A stretch of 64,000 bases of DNA from Octopus sinensis (Eukaryota). The stretch lies in assembly GCF_006345805.1 (NCBI RefSeq), contig NC_042998.1, positions 148,862,001-148,926,000 on the forward strand, given 5' to 3'. The translations under genes and the position numbers were made by a program. The notes under the pieces are model-generated. The model worked only from the letters and a program-made list of their open reading frames with translations. It had not been told where the DNA came from and did not search any database. How positions within the stretch are numbered: position 1 is the stretch's first letter; every line of letters begins with the position of its first letter. Shown piece after piece: positions 9,899 through 57,226 of this stretch.

Positions 9899-11016
9899 TG
9901 TACGGAGCTGACACATTGGTGTGAAATACAATTATACAAAAGAAACTAGCAGACATCCCTATTCGTACAGTGGAATAATATTTGCTAAAATTTGAGTTCG
10001 AATGAATCACTACCTGATGTTTCGTAATCCCGATCCTCAAGCAACTTCTGATGTACGAAGCTTTCTTACACTTTTGTGAGTATGTATGTATGATCAATCA
10101 ATAAAAACAAGAACAAATCATAAGGGGATTGATTTTTTCACAGGGGTGTAATTAATTTCCCGCTTGAAGGGAAAACGGAAGAGACAGCGGTCCTTGACGT
10201 TTTGGATATGGAGTTATTTATCAGAGAAAAAAGACAAAAGATAAGGGTGGTGGAAAGGAGAGAAGAGAGAAAGGAAAAGTCGTTAGGGGCTGAGTGGGGA
10301 TGCAATTTTATGAGAATTTAAGAAAAGAGCAAGAGGCGAGAGGTTGTGGGTATATAAAGGAGATGGGTATAGGCTGGAGAGTATCGGTATGGATTTCAGG
10401 TGGTTAGCTGGGGAGATTGATTTGAGTGGGAAATGAATATGGTATCTTTAAGAGGGGAAACAAAATAAATGAGGGGAACAGTGTATTGAGATAACGAAAG
10501 ATTAACAGAAGGTGGAGGAAAAATTTCAAAGTGGATAAAAGTGGAAGAAAAAGTGGAAATAGAAATTTATAAAAACCAAGTTAAACGTAAGAGAAGGTAA
10601 AAAGGCAGTGAGAAGGAGAAGAGAATGGTTAACAAAAATATGTATAAGACATGTAAGTATTGAAAAGGAGCAGTTGCTAAAAGAAGAGGTAACTGTGAAA
10701 AGGATATACAGAAAGGAACGTGAAGAAAAATGTATTTTAACAAAAAATACGTACAAAGAAAATAATTTTCTTTAAGAGTCAATCTATAAAATGATATAGA
10801 AAATATTATGGTAAAAGCAGAGATGACTGGAAAAGATAGGTTAAAAAACAATAATTATATAAACACCATCTCGAATTTGCGGCAAGAAATCACAAGTGAA
10901 ATAGGAGATGTAAATGGGAAATCACTTTGAAATAATTCATCGGATTTTGAGACGAGAGATTGGCGTTTAAAAAAGATTTAGCTGCTATTTCTAGCTGGTG
11001 GAAGGACTGTGTAAAG

Positions 11017-11351
11017 CAGGGGTTCTCGAACTTTTTTTTTATTTATAGACCCTTTTGATTACTGTTTTTTTTTATTCTAATGCCCCCCTAGCCATTTCGA
11101 TATTTAAAATTTCTATTTTGTTCTGACATTAACATGTGTAGGCTAAACTATGTAAAATGTTAGAGAAAGAATCCTAGCTGTTTCTTGCAATATATACCAA
11201 TTCATATATGTCCAAAGCAAAAGTTTTTCAGGGGCCCTTAATATACTATTGTGAGTCCCCAATTTACTGTTCTGTTGCATGGATCCCCCTCCCAAAAAAG
11301 AATCTTATATGAACCCTCAAGTGCCATATGGACCTCGTTTGAGAACTTCTG
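11017..11351. mobile_element. hAT (Charlie-like) MITE
   Basis: Termini CAGGGGTTCTCGAAC / GTTTGAGAACTTCTG; imperfect 8-bp TSD GTGTAAAG / GTGTAGGG. Confidence 0.7.
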
Positions 11352-27790: not shown

Positions 27791-28284
27791 TTTTTTTTTT
27801 TCATAAATAGAACAGAAATGAACGACCGAAGAAAGGACTAGAATTTCATGCCTTATATTAGAGAGGACCTTACACCCTTCAAAATGAATGTAAACAAAGC
27901 GCAATTCTTGTGTTATTGTGCATTTAAGGACTGACTGACCGATGTTGTCCCTTGCGTTACTGTGTCTTAGAGGAAGATAAAAGTTTAAACAGAAATACTA
28001 AAAAGCATTAAAAAAAACGGTGATTTATGAAGCTTTGCAAAACTATTATCTTGGTATCAGCAAATAACTTTTAAACTATTTTCAATACCTACAAATGAGA
28101 AAGTTTAGCACTATATATATATATATATATATATCACGTGATCACGTGACCGACCAGACCATCAGATGTTGCTACACATTGCTGGTCACAGTGCATTCGC
28201 ATTGTTTTAGCCTTCGAATGACACCACCCCGCTGGCTAAGCGAGCAGGCCATATATATATATATACATATAATATATATATATG

Positions 28285-28495
28285 TAGCTAATCCAAAACA
28301 TGAACAAACAGAAAACACAACAACGCGAGGACGTGGAACGAGTATAGTGTAATTGGACGCTCAAGAAAGGAAAGAAAGAAAGAAGGAGGATTTAACGTTT
28401 CGAGCGGAGTTCTTCGTCAGAAACATAGAAAAAGGAAAGGTCCAAGGAAGGGAAGACGGAGAAAGAAAATCACCAACGATACACACGCGGTCACA
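28285..28495 (-). mobile_element. Family H1 copy with canonical HHR core
   Basis: Reverse complement GTTT-CTGACGA-A-GAAC-tcc-GCTC-GAAAC-GTT-AAAT at 28390-28424. Confidence 0.65.
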
Positions 28496-28499
28496 TATT

Positions 28500-28785
28500 G
28501 AAATGGTGGTGTCCTTTATATACCTTTGAAACACGCATTGAGTCGAAACAGGGGCAGCTGATGAAGGGGAATATTCCTTGTATTGTTTGTCTTGTACACT
28601 GTTTTTCGTTGTTAAAAAAGTCCGTTTCTTGTTTGATTTTATGTTTTCGTTTCTCGTTGTGTTGTACGTTTATTTGTGGTGTCCGGTACTCATATATATA
28701 TATGCATGTATATATACATATAGATGTAGGTATGTACATATATGTATGTATGTATGTACATGTTTTATTTATTAAATTGTTATTA
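28500..28785 (+). mobile_element. Diverged relative of the 830-bp monomer, with permuted-HHR-like motif (version 3)
   Basis: GTG-TC..CCTTT-GAAA-CAC..CAG-CTGATGA-AGGGG; downstream ggtgtcc.gtac..atgta.gta.gtacatatatgt shared with the tandem unit. Confidence 0.5.
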
Positions 28786-29569
28786 TATATATATATATAT
28801 ATGATATATATATATATATATATATTTTTTTTTTGCTTGTCTTGTCCTTGGTTTGTGTCTATGTTTTTCGTCTCTATGTGTTCGACGTCTTTTGGTGTCC
28901 TGTACACATATATGCGTGTATATGTACATGTAGAGGTAGGTACGTACATATATGTTTATATATATGCATGGTGTTCTATTTTATTAACATATATACGACT
29001 AAACGCACGCACCCTATTAAGTAAGATTGTTCTGTTTATCAAGTTAGCCTTGATATTAACTCTCACGCGACTCTGCATCTTTCTTTCTTTCTCTCCCATT
29101 CCCTTTTTCGTCTTTTTTCCTCAATTAACTTGTCTCTTCCTCTTCTCTCTCCCCCTCACCGTTCTTCATGGTCTCCTCGCACCATTCCCCTTCTTCTCTC
29201 TCTCCTCTTGCTCCTCCTCCCCCATTCCCGTCGTCCATCTGCGACGATACTTCCGTCGTAACTGCTATCCTGTCTTTTCTCGCCCGCCTTCTAAGGCTAC
29301 TGGTCGACATTCTTTCTCTCTCGTCGTCCACTATAATCCAGCGTTTGCAATACTTTTTCGTTTCTGGCGTTAACAGCCCTTCTATCTTGTTCTCCTTGTC
29401 CTGTCTCTCATGTTGTAATATTTATTTTTCCACTGTTTATATATATATTTTTTACTGTTTATATGTTTGTACTGTCGTTAGCGTCTTGCTTTTTTTACCC
29501 CTCTGCGAAAAGATCTCAGAATTTTAATTGATTTGCTTTTCGCAGGAAGGAAGTGTTTCTTCGAAGTAT

Positions 29570-29630
29570 ACGTCTCGCTTTTATCCTTCGAAACGTTTAG
29601 TAGATGAAACTTAGCGACTGAAGAGGGGAT
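29570..29630 (+). ncRNA. Candidate non-circularly permuted hammerhead, copy 1
   Basis: ACG-TC|TCGCT..ATCCTTC-GAAA-CGT..AGCGA-CTGAAGA-GGGGAT. Confidence 0.55.
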
Positions 29631-30393
29631 TCTCGTTGTGCTTATTGTCCTGTATCTCTTTTTTTGCTTGTCTTGTTCCTTGGTTTGTGTCTATGTTTTT
29701 CGTCTCTCTATGTGTTCGACGTCTTTTGGTGTCCTGTACACATATATGCGTGTATATGTACATGTAGAGGTAGGTACGTACATATATGTTTATATATATG
29801 CATATGTATTTATTAACATATTTATCGACTAAACGCACGCACCCTATTAAGTAAGATTGTTCTGTTTATCAAGTTAGCCTTGATATTAACTCTCCGCGAC
29901 TCTGCATCTTTCTTTCTTTCTCTCCCATTCCCTTTTTCGTCTTTTTTCCCTCAATACTTGTCTCTTCCTCTCTCTCTCCCCCTCACCGTTCTTCATGGTC
30001 TCCTCGCACCATTCCCCTTCTCTCCTCTTTCTCTTGCTCCTCCTCCCCCATTCCCGTCGTCCATCTGCGACGATACTTCCGTCGTAACTGCTATCCTGTC
30101 TTTTCTCGCCCGCCTTCTAAGGCTACTGGTCGACATTCTTTCTCTCTCGTCGTCCACTATATCCAGCGTTTGCAATACTTTTTTCGTCTGGCGTTAACAG
30201 CCCTTCTTATCTTGTTCTCCTTGTCCTGTCTCTCACTGTTATATATTTATTTTTCCACTGTTTATATATATATTTTTTACTGTTTATATGTTTGTACTGT
30301 CGTTACCGTCTTGCTTTTTTTACCCCTCTGCGAAAAGATCTCAGAATTTTAATTGATTTGCTTTTCGCAGGAAGGAAGTTTTCTTCGAAGTAT

Positions 30394-30456
30394 ACGTCTC
30401 GCTTTTATCCTTCGAAACGTTTAGTAGATGAAACCTTAGCGACTGAAGAAGGGGAT
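30394..30456 (+). ncRNA. Candidate non-circularly permuted hammerhead, copy 2
   Basis: ACG-TC|TCGCT..ATCCTTC-GAAA-CGT..AGCGA-CTGAAGA-AGGGGAT. Confidence 0.55.
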
Positions 30457-31225
30457 TTCTCGTTGTGCTTATTGTCCTGTATCTCTTTTTTTTGCTTGTC
30501 TTGTTCCTTGGTTTGTGTCTATGTTTTTCGTCTCTCTATGTGTTCGACGTCTTTTGGTGTCCTGTACACATATATGCGTGTATATGTACATGTAGAGGTA
30601 GGTACGTACATATATGTTTATATATATGCATATGTTCTATTTTATTAACATATTATACGACTAAACGCACGCACCCTATTAAGAAGATTGTTCGTTTATC
30701 AAGTTAGCCTTGATATTAACTCTCACGCGACTCTGCATCTTTCTTTCTTTCTCTCCCATTCCCTTTTTCGTCTTTTTTCCCTCACTTAACTTGTCTCTTC
30801 CTCTCTCTCTCCCCCTCACCGTTCTTCATGGTCTCCTGTACCATTCCCCTTCTTCTCTCTTTTCCTCTTGCTCCTCCTCCCCCATTCCCGTCGTCCATCT
30901 GCGACGATACTTCCGTCGTAACTGCTATCCTGTCTTTTCTCGCCCGCCTTCTAAGGCTACTGGTCGACATTCTTTCTCTCTCGTCGTCCACTATAATCCA
31001 GCGGTTGCAATACTTTTTCGTCTGGCGTTAACAGCCCTCTTATCTTGTTCTCCTTGTCCTGTCTCTCACTGTTATATATTTATTTTTCCACTGTTTATAT
31101 ATATTTTTTACTGTTTATGTGTTTGTACTGTCGTTACACGTCTTGCTTTTTTTACCCCTCTGCGAAAAGATCTCAGAATTTTAATTGATTTGCTTTTCGC
31201 AGGAAGGAAGTTTTCTTCGAAGTAT

Positions 31226-31288
31226 ACGTCTCGCTTTTATCCTTCGAAACGTTTAGTAGATGAAACCTTAGCGACTGAAGAAGGGGAT
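31226..31288 (+). ncRNA. Candidate non-circularly permuted hammerhead, copy 3
   Basis: Same motif as copy 2. Confidence 0.55.
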
Positions 31289-31481
31289 TTCTCGTTGTGC
31301 TTATTGTCCTGTATCTCTTTTTTTGCTTGTCTTGTTCCTTGGTTTGTGTCTATGTTTTTCGTCTCTCTATGTGTTCGACGTCTTTTTGGTGTCCTGTACA
31401 CATATATGCGTGTATATGTACATGTAGAGGTAGGTACGTACATATATGTTTATATATATGCATATGTTCTATTTTATTAAC

Positions 31482-31513
<32 letters not shown>

Positions 31514-31991
31514 CATATATATATATGGTCTGAAAGGATTAGAGACAAACACTTTCCTCTCTGGTCAATCTCTCATCAACTTCTTCAAGTATCAATTGAA
31601 AAGTAAAGTGAGAGTAGAGAGGCAAGTTTTGGCTAGCGAATGTTTAAAAAAAATGGGTGCATGTAGCAAGGATGGCACCTATGAATGACGAAGCCACATT
31701 GAGTATAATCCTATGAACCCGGAAAAATTTAAAACAGAGAGTTACTTGCAAATAAATGTGTTAACATGTGACATTAATAACCGAGGTTACCGTGATATTT
31801 TCCGTAGGCTTTTCTTTCGACGGATAAACCTTATCTGCTTCTCCCTTTACACTTTACATCATGACATTTCTGTGATACACGATCCCTATTGATCGAAAAC
31901 CTACCCCACTCCTTTTTTTTTCTCCCCAAAAAGAAAAGCTCTACTTTGTAATTTGTCCCGTCTGTGTCTAGCCCCGCGTGGCTAATAAAGA

Positions 31992-32053
<62 letters not shown>

Positions 32054-48839: not shown

Positions 48840-48900
<61 letters not shown>

Positions 48901-48903
<3 letters not shown>

Positions 48904-49960
48904 ATCAAAATAAGCAACAAGGATATCCAAAGGTAATGCAGTACGATCGTTTCATGCGACTCCATTTAATTAAGTATTACATCAGTTTTAAAATGTAGAG
49001 CAATCTTCAGCTGCATATAAATATAGAATTTAGTTAAATTGAAAAGATTGAAACGATTCATTTTTATACTCATTCCATTTATACATTCTAAAGTCATTAG
49101 CAAGTAGATAATATATGAAATGTTTAGCATATTCCTTTAATTTAACTCATTAATACCAATAAATTACTATTTACTAATTAACTATAAATTTATATTAATT
49201 TGATTTATATCTATATAAAAATATGAAATCATTTCTATATTCTCCCTCCCTATATTGTATAAGATACTAAAATTATTCGAATTCTTTGAAAAAACTATCT
49301 AAAATATATCTATTTATTTCAAATCACAATTAGGATTATGGCTATTAAATAGTTAGGTATTAGAAGTTTCTATTCTCCCTACCCCACCAGTTTTGGCCTA
49401 CTAATTTTAGCTTGAATATATTCAACTGAACCAAAATTGAGTTCTTCAAAGGGAACTTGATTTATCGCTCTGCCATTTATACTATCTCTCCCTCTATCAA
49501 TAAAAGAAAGATTCTTGTCTCCACTAGACCTGATGGAATAGTATTAAACTCCTTCCCCAATAGTAAATCTAAATAGCTTAGTAAAATCAATGATAAGCAT
49601 TATCTCCGCGAAAAAATATTAATTACTACCATGTTTCTGTTGGTGAAACGTGTTTCGCTGTCTACGTACTTACCCTCTTTGTGATGTTGATAAACGTAAT
49701 AAGTAGCAAAATGAATCTTTTCAATCTTTTCAATTTAACTAAGTTCTATATTTTTTATTCAACTGAAGATTGCTCTACATTTTAAAACTGATGTAATACT
49801 TGCATTGTTTAATTAAATGGAGCCGCATGAAACGATCGTACTGCATTACCTTTGGATATCCTTATTGCTAGTTTTGATTATAATCACCCCATTTTGAATT
49901 ATATGGATAATACCATACCAAATTCTGGTGCCTTTAACTTAAGTACCATATTCAACTGAA
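48901..49960 (+). mobile_element. Family H2 Penelope-like 3' fragment with inverted pLTR and HHR
   Basis: IR about 48901-49070 / 49709-49880 plus the same tail as 17202-17280; best HHR on minus strand at 48937-49015 TGCAG-CTGAAGA..GAAAC-GATC-GTA-CTGCA. Confidence 0.72.
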
Positions 49961-52695: not shown

Positions 52696-54234
52696 TATAA
52701 TTTCAACAATTGAGGGTAAAATTAATTAATTATTAATCAATTTCACCAAGTATTCAGTATGTAAAGGGACCATTATAGGCGAATTCAAAATATTACATTA
52801 TATATAAGGGCTTAGTAAAATAAATTACTTTGCCACATACTGAACTCATTAGAAATAGCAGCTAAAGAAATTTCTTCAGCTATTTCTAATACTTAAAGAA
52901 GATCTCTCTCAGATAGTGTTTGCCTAAACTAACTCACAAAAGTATGGGGGAAAAAACATTAAAAAATCAAGTGCAAAGGTTATTTGAGAACGTACGTTTC
53001 TAGATTAGTCAATTCGACATTTCTTTCTTCAGCTCAGAATTCCTTGAATCGGATTTGGGAACACTGAAAGTCGGGAGCATACCCTTTCGGCTTCTAATCA
53101 CCTCTAGAATTCTGCTCGAACTAAAAGTGCTATCAAATTCGAATATGCAAGCGAAGAATTTCTGCTCTCCCCTTTCCACCAGCGTGGGTTAAAATTGACA
53201 AACACCATGTATTAACGGTGAAAACCGCAGCATTTTACAGAGAAAGATGAATTATAATTTCAACAATTGAGGGTAAAATTAATTAATTATTAATCAATTT
53301 CACCAAGTATTCAGTATGTAAAGGGACCATTATAGGCGAATTCAAAATATTACATTATATATAAGGGCTTAGTAAAATAAATTACTTTGCCACATACTGA
53401 ACTCATTAGAAATAGCAGCTAAAGAAATTTCTTCAGCTATTTCTAATACTTAAAGAAGATCTCTCTCAGATAGTGTTTGCCTAAACTAACTCACAAAAGT
53501 ATGGGGGAAAAAACATTAAAAAATCAAGTGCAAAGGTTATTTGAGAACGTACGTTTCTTGATTAGTCAATTCGACATTTCTTTCTTCAGCTCAGAATTCC
53601 TTGAATCGGATTGGGAACACTGAAAGTCGGGAGCATACCCTTTCGGCTTCTAATCACCTCTAGAATTCTGCTCGAACTAAAAGTGCTATCAAATTCGAAT
53701 ATGCAAGCGAAGAATTTCTGCTCTCCCCTTTCCACCAGCGTCGGTTAAAATTGACAAACACCATGTATTAACGGTGAAAACCGCAGCATTTTACAGAGAA
53801 AGATGAATATAATTTCAACAATTGAGGGTAAAATTAATTAATTATTAATCAATTTCACCAAGTATTCAGTATGTAAAGGACCATTATAGGCGAATTTGAT
53901 AGCACTTTTAGTTCGAGCAGAATTCTAGAGGTGATTAGAAGCCGAAAGGGTATGCTCCCGACTTTCAGTGTTCCCAATCCGATTCAAGGAATTCTGAGCT
54001 GAAGAAAGAAATGTCGAATTGACTAATCTAGAAACGTACGTTCTCAAATAACCTTGGCACTTGATTTTTTAATGTTTTTTCCCCCATACTTTTGTGAGTT
54101 AGTTTAGGCAAACACTATCTGAGAGAGATCTTCTTTAAGTATTAGAAATAGCTGAAGAAATTTCTTTAGCTGCTATTTCTAATGAGTTCAGTATGTGGCA
54201 AAGTAATTTATTTTACTAAGCCCTTATATATAAT
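52696..54234 (-). mobile_element. 557-bp monomer tandem (2 copies plus a partial) joined to an inverted partial copy; one HHR per monomer
   Basis: Starts at 52696, 53253 and 53808; inversion at CGAATT 53891-53896; HHR at 52985-53036(-), 53542-53593(-) and 53995-54046(+). Confidence 0.85.
53995..54046 (+). ncRNA. Type I hammerhead ribozyme motif
   Basis: TGAG-CTGAAGA-aAGAaatGTCgaattGACtaaTCTa-GAAAC-GTAC-GTT|CTCA. Confidence 0.7.
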
Positions 54235-55611: not shown

Positions 55612-57226
55612 TGATAAAACGGTAAGATAACAAAAGAAAGAAAGAGACCTCAATATTATGTAAATAGAGGAAATTTATCTATACAATATGTTACATTACT
55701 CGGTAGTCAAGATAAAACTCTGAGTTTCAGATGCCGAAGTGGAAATCCACAACACCATCTCTTCGGTTATCTGGCTATTTGAAAACGTTATGAAAAAATA
55801 CCGTTAAAAATGAAGGGAAATTACTCTGTTATAACTGCTTTGCCTGCGTACTTATACATCGCTCGCATTTTTCGTCATAAAAATTATATAAAAATACATA
55901 AAAATATATAAAAATATATAAAAATATATAAAATCTTCTTGGGACATAACACAGAAAGCATGTTCTATCCGTTTTCTTTAGGGGACCAAAAACGTAACAG
56001 AAATTTAGTCACATGTGGGCATGATCCGAAAAGCTCTGTCCTTGTATTTAGACATGTGGTAGGGTCTAAGCTGCTTTTCCAGATAAGCCATCTCTCCATG
56101 TCGCATAAACCGCACCTTCCGCTGCCGTTAGTGTAGGCTTACATCTGGCCAAAATCTTCCATTGTATGTTATAATCGACACCTTTATCTCTTAAAGACCA
56201 AATATGATTGGATATTGTGTCGCTTTTCTTTTGTTCCAGTGCCTAAAGCTCAAAGTGTGGTTATTGAACCTGGCCTTGAAATTACCCTCTGTCAGGCCCA
56301 CGTATTTCTTCGTCGAAACGGTGTCTTTAGTGGTTATAGAGTTTACGGTAGCTTCATATATGATGGTCTTGGACATGCAAGCTCCATTTAGCGGGCACAA
56401 TTCTTTATTCCTGCATGAACAGCTGTTTTCTTCTTGTGTTTTTTGTATGTTATGATTGATTATGTTTTTAAAATTGGTAGTTGAACTAAAACTAATTTTT
56501 AAATTGTGTCTATTGAAGAGTTTCCTATAAGCATGGTTAACTGGAAAATGTCTATCTATCAGTGCTAGGAAATATTTACCATATTGAAGGCCACCTCGGG
56601 TGAGTAAGGGGGCATAAACCAGATGACCTTCCTATTTCTATTATTCCTTTTCCTTACTGTTGGGCTGGTGATAGGTGTATATTTATTTTTTCGCTAAAAC
56701 CACTATCTTTTAAAGCTTTATTATAAACTGGGGCAACGCTATTGAAGATGTCCTCATTGGATGAGAGGCTAGAAATCCTCTTACTAATATTAACTAAATT
56801 TTTGAATACTATAGGGGGATGGCATGAACCTACATTAATATAACTTAGTCTATCATTGGGCTTCCTATAAGGCTTATAAATATTATTATTAAGATCTAAG
56901 GAAACGTCTAAGAAATTGACAACCGTCAGGTTAGTGTCTATTGTTATACTAAGTCCGAACATGCTTTCTGTGTTATGTCCCAAGAAGATTTTATATATTT
57001 TTATATATTTTTATGTATTTTTATATAATTTTTATGACGAAAAATGCGAGCGATGTATAAGTACGCAGGCAAAGCAGAGTTATAACAGAGTAATTTCCCT
57101 TCATTTTTAACGGTATTTTTTCATAACGTTTTCAAATAGCCAGATAACCGAAGAGATGGTGTTGTGGATTTCCACTTCGGCATCTGAAACTCGGAGTTTT
57201 ATCTTGACTACCGAGTAATGTAACAT

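Follow-up and report, generated by a model that had tools for sequence, protein, structure and literature searches.

Positions 28826..31481 of a 64,000-nucleotide (nt) stretch of the Octopus sinensis genome (NCBI RefSeq assembly GCF_006345805.1, contig NC_042998.1, positions 148,862,001 to 148,926,000 of the forward strand; this whole stretch is called the window below) read, on their sequence, as one insertion of a non-coding Penelope-like retroelement in a (TA)n run, and each of its three full units carries a hammerhead ribozyme whose blocks stand in a non-circular order. We consider it likely, with a probability of about 0.7, that the core of this ribozyme is wired as the 5' strand of stem II together with one strand of an extra helix (P4), then the cleavage site, GAAA, the complementary strand P4', and CUGAnGA, with the chain entering the core at G10.1 and leaving it at A9 and with a predicted cut after C17. 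The array and its ribozymes, in window coordinates, are:

28826..31481, plus strand: the array, read as one insertion of a non-coding Penelope-like or retrozyme element; a 5'-truncated piece of 163 nt, then three full periods, with unit ends at 28988, 29817, 30649 and 31481
31482..31526, no strand: (TA)n target in the right flank, from its sequence; (TA)n also adjoins 28826 on the left
29546..29624, plus strand: ribozyme copy 1, from the proposed upstream stem II strand to CUGAAGA; predicted cut after C29574
30371..30449, plus strand: ribozyme copy 2; predicted cut after C30398
31203..31281, plus strand: ribozyme copy 3; predicted cut after C31230
30371..30376, plus strand: proposed stem II 5' strand of copy 2, GAAGGA (G10.1 = 30371), which would pair with UCCUUC at 30408-30413
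30376..30383, plus strand: 5' strand of helix P4 in copy 2; pairs with 30430-30437 beside stem I in 7 of 8 positions
30394..30403, plus strand: block S of copy 2; stem III 5' strand ACGU and C17 (ACGU-C, 30394-30398), stem I 5' strand UCGCU (30399-30403)
30408..30420, plus strand: block G of copy 2; CCUUC (30409-30413), GAAA (30414-30417), stem III 3' strand
30438..30449, plus strand: stem I 3' strand AGCGA (30438-30442) and core CUGAAGA (30443-30449) of copy 2, from sequence and covariation
30450..30464, plus strand: purine run after A9 in copy 2, formerly taken for a stem II strand; predicted to form a local hairpin in most subfamilies, weakly in the window subfamily

Block order, stems I and III and the predicted cut

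With a descriptor allowing all six block orders, the core elements CUGAnGA, GAAA and UH were found in all three window copies, and in all three the order was S-G-C (site, GAAA, CUGAnGA), which is none of the circular orders CGS, GSC and SCG of types I, II and III. A sequence-only reading of this DNA had recognised the same segments, placed C17 at 29574, 30398 and 31230 and called the order non-circular, and on each of these points our analysis agrees with it. No comparable match in any block order arose in 2000 dinucleotide shuffles of the unit. Metagenomes served as a negative control: stems I and III were missing upstream in all 120 stretches that fit the 20-letter core pattern. Across the 2.72 Gb of genome searched, a 111-nt ribozyme query returned 1368 candidates (the best 40 at 99-100%), and exact core patterns gave 2610, 1937, 26, 747 and 155 matches as compared with 0 or 1 in reversed-pattern controls; there are thus >5,000 core-pattern matches, to be read as matches and not as curated copies, in many subfamilies. 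The Rfam hammerhead models matched neither the whole window at gathering score nor 28000-32000 at E up to 5.

Covariation across subfamilies supports stems I and III. There were 191 full-length instances, 185 of them placed by sequence alone, and 123 were distinct, a set that includes 26 loci picked on purpose for a changed stem III base. The pairs of stem I (UCGCU/AGCGA, as originally proposed) are kept in 113-119 of these 123 copies and pairs 2-4 of stem III in 103-123, with U-A/C-G swaps at 1.1, 1.2, 1.4, 1.5, 16.3 and 16.4 and with C, U or A at H17. Among 45 less redundant copies, 94.2% of cells pair, as compared with 87.1% when shuffled and 46-57% when slid; since the copies are related, their tree being a ladder of subfamilies, shuffles overstate significance, and the stem II columns of this test, fixed by the search pattern, are uninformative.

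Genomic 5' ends pile up just behind the cut site that had been predicted, which is an indirect sign of cleavage in vivo. Among 140 loci chosen without regard to upstream sequence, 26 start at 0..+10 behind the cut (2.4 per nt; the pattern hides starts beyond +10), as compared with 5 at -11..-1 and 20 at -110..-1 (p 8e-16); L362 offered only 400 nt of upstream sequence, and L365 and L406 were scored far upstream though apparently truncated at the site. Sixty further loci gave 4 versus 8 (p 0.019). Another set was anchored on a motif 150 nt downstream; of its 83 arrays, two were inner units and were dropped, and of the remaining 81, 10 start at 0..+20, 14 at +21..+150 and 4 at -60..-1. Inverted 5' pieces occur in 4 of 370 instances, three of them joining at the stem I complement. 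The reverse transcriptase, we infer, often reaches the 5' end of its template at the cut and runs off there, and the window ribozyme is predicted to cleave its own RNA.

Wiring of stem II

The sequence-only reading drew stem II as GGGGAU/AUCCUU, and here we depart from it: its first pair is an A.C mismatch in the window and is formed in 6 of 215 distinct copies, and an upstream strand is favoured in its place. Whole subfamilies have the bases after A9 changed (to C, UU, UA, CC or ACU); CCUUC has scattered single mutants only, and a search for subfamilies altered at U11.2 found none. For 183 of 216 distinct copies, a local hairpin of at least four pairs is predicted among the purines after A9. 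The GAAGG that lies 27 nt upstream of the cut is complementary to the CCUUC before GAAA and gives a canonical G10.1-C11.1 pair; by duplex energies the upstream duplex is stronger than the downstream one in 16 of 16 subfamily representatives, GAAGGA is kept in the 14 representatives compared, and GAAGG remains even where the splice AG is lost (L550). The second strand of P4 lies upstream of the cut, continuous with this upstream strand, and P4 covaries across subfamilies, positions 7-11 and 15 exceeding all 500 shuffles. To judge by these sequences, stem II is most likely GAAGG (30371-30375) with CCUUC (30409-30413), a pairing that would open the chain between A9 and G10.1. With a stem II strand that begins at 30371, the transcript 30370-30465 earlier put forward for a cleavage assay only just contains the right region, and the stem II mutants put forward with it would strike the wrong helix.

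The upstream strand is favoured because of compensatory pairing outside the window lineage, GACACC/GGUGUC, in copies of Naiad type. Naiads, which are Penelope-like elements, have been reported to be without canonical hammerheads, with 'core' or 'half-core' motifs flagged, one of them in an octopus Naiad (Craig 2021, PMC8557442, in the text accessible to us). The octopus Naiad 3' end has the same layout as the window ribozyme, with GACACC upstream and GGUGUC before GAAA; this Naiad-type ribozyme has 328 exact matches in the Octopus sinensis genome (0 in the reversed control), and one Octopus sinensis repeat is near-identical to the published octopus Naiad ends. The family (L600-L629, e.g. G000:C1:145535174-145535212) has a GUA site ~85 nt before its (TA)n-flanked 3' end, and its copies, at 75-92% between copies, are older than those of the window family. 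In the 28 copies used of 30 fetched (two, rearranged or truncated, were left out), GACACC/GGUGUC pairs in 23-28 copies per position, stems I and III in 23-28, and P4, in the register of the window family, in 19-26. Downstream, even the best register is broken by a mismatch at the third pair, and next to the core no register exceeds two pairs in a row; duplex energies in one copy were -9.5 upstream versus +0.9 downstream. In these copies the stem II 5' strand does not follow CUGAnGA at once, as an uninterrupted block C would have it. When window-family and Naiad-type ribozymes were aligned together with MAFFT, their upstream strands came out misaligned, and we gave that alignment no weight.

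The same layout recurs in published Naiads. Among 19 consensus 3' ends (PMC8557442 supplement S5), read by eye and with record names taken from file order, four have the opened-core layout, with three different stem II sequences: Naiad_Obim and Naiad_Ovul from two octopuses, the coral Naiad_Amil (GGCUCC/GGAGCC, 9-pair P4) and the acanthocephalan Naiad_Plae (GGCCCC/GGGGCC, 9-pair P4). Four more are like type CSG with a long interaction helix (Naiad_Hpol, Naiad_Parc and Naiad-3_Nbra of nematodes and Naiad_Smim of a spider), a type with only two examples in the accessible text of Eckert 2023 (PMC10085705), and one, Naiad_Lpol of the horseshoe crab, looks like type SGC; in the last ~600 letters of 10 of the 19, no ribozyme was recognisable by eye. 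We lean towards the broader view that an opened-core hammerhead, with stem II from an upstream strand, is active in thousands of animal-genome copies and is the missing hammerhead of the Naiads (in coral, acanthocephalan and octopus, beside CSG in nematodes and a spider and SGC in the horseshoe crab). If this is true, the six-permutation scheme is incomplete, and non-circular hammerheads are regular in one large invertebrate retroelement clade.

Alternatively, one could envision a plain type-SGC hammerhead, with stem II taken from the purines after CUGAnGA and with the upstream GAAGG as a competitor until strand exchange, a reading that we think unlikely but would not neglect. It would preserve the covalent A9-to-10.1 link of all described hammerheads, it fits the GGGG kept in most subfamilies, and the published horseshoe-crab Naiad end looks by eye like a true SGC; GAAGG might hold the ribozyme off by binding the downstream UCCUU, and in 159 of 216 copies the upstream segment is predicted to pair with UCCUU at -3 kcal or better. 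However, its best register begins with 1-3 bulged bases, followed by G-C, G.U, G.U and G-C, and leaves only three pairs in the subfamilies that have three G; at 11.2, no subfamily turned up with a stabilising U-to-C change, and both the duplex energies of the 16 representatives and the Naiad-type downstream registers given above speak against it. Strand exchange between the upstream and downstream registers may occur.

The upstream wiring and the reading built on it have several observations to contend with. Within the window lineage, stem II was unable to covary, since the search patterns fixed CCUUC and a filter fixed the upstream GAAG; its pairing in 206-215 of 215 copies is likewise not independent, the strands being preselected, and the only free upstream pair, the sixth, exceeds shuffles in the 215 copies but not in 66 non-redundant ones (15 versus a maximum of 17). 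The seventh pair of the earlier GGGGAU register also exceeds shuffles (132 of 215), which may be one indel event, and if one base is allowed to bulge, four downstream pairs form in ~185-210 of 215 copies, a bulged-base stem II having precedent in Penelope hammerheads (PMC4209133, accessible text). No structural precedent for a break between A9 and G10.1 was found in searchable papers. Minimum-energy folds, which cannot draw pseudoknots, do not return the ribozyme. The window unit has no BLAST similarity to Naiad-type 3' regions, and homology with them rests on layout. The 5'-end peak of the downstream-anchored arrays is broad (-1..+24), and the interval scored for it was chosen with the data already in view. 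Finally, no autonomous partner sharing the unit end was found among the GIY-YIG loci examined (30 loci and 20 longer stretches, with 150 of 5029 candidates scored) or by tblastn over 394 motif loci.

That broad peak, spreading to ~+24, would also suit a fold that is real but weak or lost in catalysis and kept for recognition by reverse transcriptase or for packaging, with the pile-up as stalling in a stable pseudoknot; Penelope hammerheads cleave poorly in vitro (PMC4209133), and 8 of 9 Xenopus retrozyme dimers were without cleavage (10.64898/2026.07.22.740005), as far as the accessible parts of both sources go. We nevertheless regard this as quite improbable. The drop in 5' ends lies at the scissile bond and not at the 3' edge of the fold, the place to look for a stall, although P4 reaches 25 nt further upstream; and in core-pattern copies N7 takes all four bases and H17 is C, U or A, with the caveat that the search pattern dictated the other core bases and the placing rule dictated H17. 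More doubtful still is an active ribozyme to which neighbouring units, or separate molecules, contribute the parts, whether as a dimer or with the blocks in canonical order. The tandem context invites it, and dimer action is established for Penelope and amphibian retrozyme hammerheads, but the canonical order would take blocks from three units ~800 nt apart, P4 and the conserved short spacings are local features, and Naiad ends hold a single ribozyme copy. Chance resemblance or an assembly artefact, to which the excess indels of the window array might point, is hardly credible given thousands of matches with null controls, covariation, and near-identical sequence in 19 public runs of 9 studies under four organism labels.

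The mobile unit and its surroundings

The unit that carries the proposed opened-core ribozyme behaves as a retrozyme-like mobile element, as the sequence-only reading had supposed. Copies at 30 other loci share a 3' end ~259 nt behind the cut and have variable 5' truncation, and no similarity to Penelope proteins was found inside the units. Of 28 array ends, 15 pass directly into (AT)4 and most others into AT-rich runs, with two bearing a ~50-nt tail into the next unit. Partial tandems, fixed 3' ends and 5' truncation are the pattern of Penelope-like elements (Craig 2021, PMC8557442, accessible text), and the family combines all three with a tail, inversions and a microsatellite target. It also has the non-coding tandem units, the hammerhead in each and the genome-wide dispersal of retrozymes without long terminal repeats (non-LTR retrozymes), but not their type I hammerhead.

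Site-to-site spacings in the window array are 824 and 832 nt, lengths that had been taken as those of the released monomers. These are probably too short: 4 substitutions and 21 indels separate the two window units, whereas 6 substitutions and 4 indels separate those of L019, the only other array with two whole units, and 21 other family units measure 834-880 nt (median ~861). The sequences thus suggest shortening by indel (consensus) error, ~860 nt being typical of the family.

The unit is predicted to contain a retained intron, from motifs and from likeness to the Drosophila Penelope. Across subfamilies, a donor-like AA/GTAAG recurs ~30 nt from the start of the unit, and a CAG resembling an acceptor recurs just 5' of the ribozyme (the slash marks the splice junction); the acceptor reads CGG in 56 of 179 distinct copies, and in copy 3 the donor motif, at 30683, is without its T. 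No splice joint was seen when assembled contigs of 4 of 23 public runs, which are not on record as RNA, were compared with one unit, a result that speaks neither for nor against expression or splicing. The predicted introns and a neighbouring copy are:

29851..30370, plus strand: predicted retained intron of copy 2, donor AA/GTAAGA at 29851, acceptor CAG at 30370 before G10.1
29021-29545, plus strand: predicted retained intron of copy 1, from splice motifs
28521..28790, plus strand: 5'-truncated copy of a sister subfamily (unit ~798 nt) that shares the TA run of the array; its first base lies a few nt behind the cut predicted for it

We picture the following life cycle for the element. The upstream strand would form stem II and P4, the site would pair into stems III and I, and CUGAnGA would close the core; by continuing into P4 beside stem I, the upstream strand would tie stems I and II together, like the interaction helix of type SGC. 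Tandem transcripts would be cut into ~860-nt monomers, and a Penelope-type protein with reverse transcriptase and GIY-YIG domains would work on them in trans, nicking (TA)n and priming at the AU-rich end of the unit. Cut RNA could then give ~260-nt solo copies starting at the site, and uncut tandem RNA or ligated circles could give partial-tandem arrays like 28826..31481. The AT-rich 3' part of the units (window 29730-29815 and equivalents) can fold as a long hairpin, with weak miRNA-model matches far below the Rfam threshold; it is possibly a recognition element for the reverse transcriptase.

Intact reverse transcriptase-GIY-YIG frames of 762-883 amino acids do occur in the genome (L061-L069, e.g. 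G000:C1:207473500-207481500); they end in (TA)n and have other 3' ends, with type I-like or degenerate cores. One group of them has a type I-like core, UUGAUAA, in its 3' untranslated part, with a possible U3-A8 swap, and several have a second upstream frame of 280-479 amino acids. Ribozyme matches beside three reverse transcriptase-GIY-YIG loci, considered as partner ends, proved to be separate insertions. At one of the three, L075 (G000:C18:30838800-30846800, minus strand), a truncated copy of subfamily 1b is fused to a Penelope-like 3' end ~12 nt short of its usual terminus, with no TA run between; the joint is possibly a template switch pointing to the partner, or else a chance insertion. 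No Naiad reading frame was found within 1.5 kb upstream of the 30 Naiad-type copies, and cephalopod Naiads have been reported as remnants (PMC8557442, accessible text).

Elsewhere in the window, another repeat (28280-28495, minus strand) has a hammerhead-like core in canonical order (CUGACGA ... GAAAC) with no evident stem I, and Penelope-like reading-frame fragments lie near the array (56191-56631, minus strand, and just past 32500). Unrelated canonical type I hammerhead candidates with a long stem III occur at 48900-48990 (minus strand), 54000-54080 (plus strand) and ~10950-11040 (minus strand), and others like them at L034, L063, L064, L068, L105 and L124, which suggests that circular and non-circular forms coexist in the Octopus sinensis genome.

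Comparison with known systems

In 2023, non-circular hammerheads of unknown host and origin were reported in contigs of metatranscriptomes and metagenomes (Eckert 2023, PMC10085705, here and below in its accessible text). The precedent named in the sequence-only reading, from Xenopus and Penelope, should be replaced by this one, whose type SGC, reported only from metatranscriptomes, has the block order of the window array. We searched the literature for a non-circular hammerhead in an animal genome, or for one opened at A9/G10.1, and found none, subscription journals, Repbase reports and bioRxiv supplements lying outside the search. An animal genome can now be added, with many subfamilies and thousands of copies in which the evolution of non-circular hammerheads is traceable. 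The wiring proposed here challenges the stated rule that CUGAnGA is contiguous with its stem II strand and offers an answer to why Naiads seemed to be without the hammerhead of other Penelope-like elements, and the pile-up of 5' ends at the scissile bond makes the role of Penelope hammerheads directly testable. Because circular-order descriptors and Rfam miss non-circular forms, counts of hammerheads in genomes are too low.

With type SGC the window family shares the order site, GAAA, CUGAnGA, a pseudoknotted core, a stem I of 5-6 base pairs (bp), a short linker to the stem II 3' strand, and, as a link between stems I and II, an additional helix on the segment that precedes the stem I 3' strand. 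However, the published RNAs are on metatranscriptome contigs carrying hairpin ribozymes and not in an animal genome, and in them the stem II 5' and interaction strands follow CUGAnGA, whereas in the window family both most likely lie upstream of the site, the second strand of the extra helix being upstream instead of downstream. Since its stem II 5' strand probably does not stand directly after CUGAnGA, we do not file the family as type SGC. Eckert 2023 assumes that block C cannot be interrupted, and its CSG and GCS search patterns require CUGAUGAG or CUGAUGAUG; the motif CCUUCGAAAC is absent from the part of its supplement text examined. Type-SGC cleavage rates are 0.007-0.19 per min. We would view the opened-core form as a further circular opening, inside block C, of the pseudoknotted class that comprises SGC, CSG and GCS.

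Animal non-LTR retrozymes (Cervera and de la Pena 2020, PMC7229834, accessible text) likewise consist of non-coding tandem units with one hammerhead each, dispersed in thousands, and have been proposed as non-autonomous Penelope derivatives. They are type I by definition and mostly 150-450 nt long, or up to 972 in a preprint (Li, Clavereau and Pollet 2026), whereas the window family has a unit of 800-870 nt, a non-circular ribozyme and a predicted retained intron. The hammerheads of Penelope pseudo-LTRs (Cervera and de la Pena 2014, PMC4209133, accessible text) also lie near the element end, and in Drosophila virilis Penelope the 3' end of an intron abuts the ribozyme, as predicted here; those hammerheads are of type I, with a short or absent stem III, and act as dimers, in contrast to the non-circular window ribozyme with its stem III of 4-5 bp. 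Naiad (PMC8557442, accessible text) shares (TA)n targeting, partial tandems, 3' tail extension, inverted 5' pieces and the layout of the ribozyme itself, but the window element is non-coding, and its sequence shows no detectable similarity to the 3' region of the Naiad-type copies.

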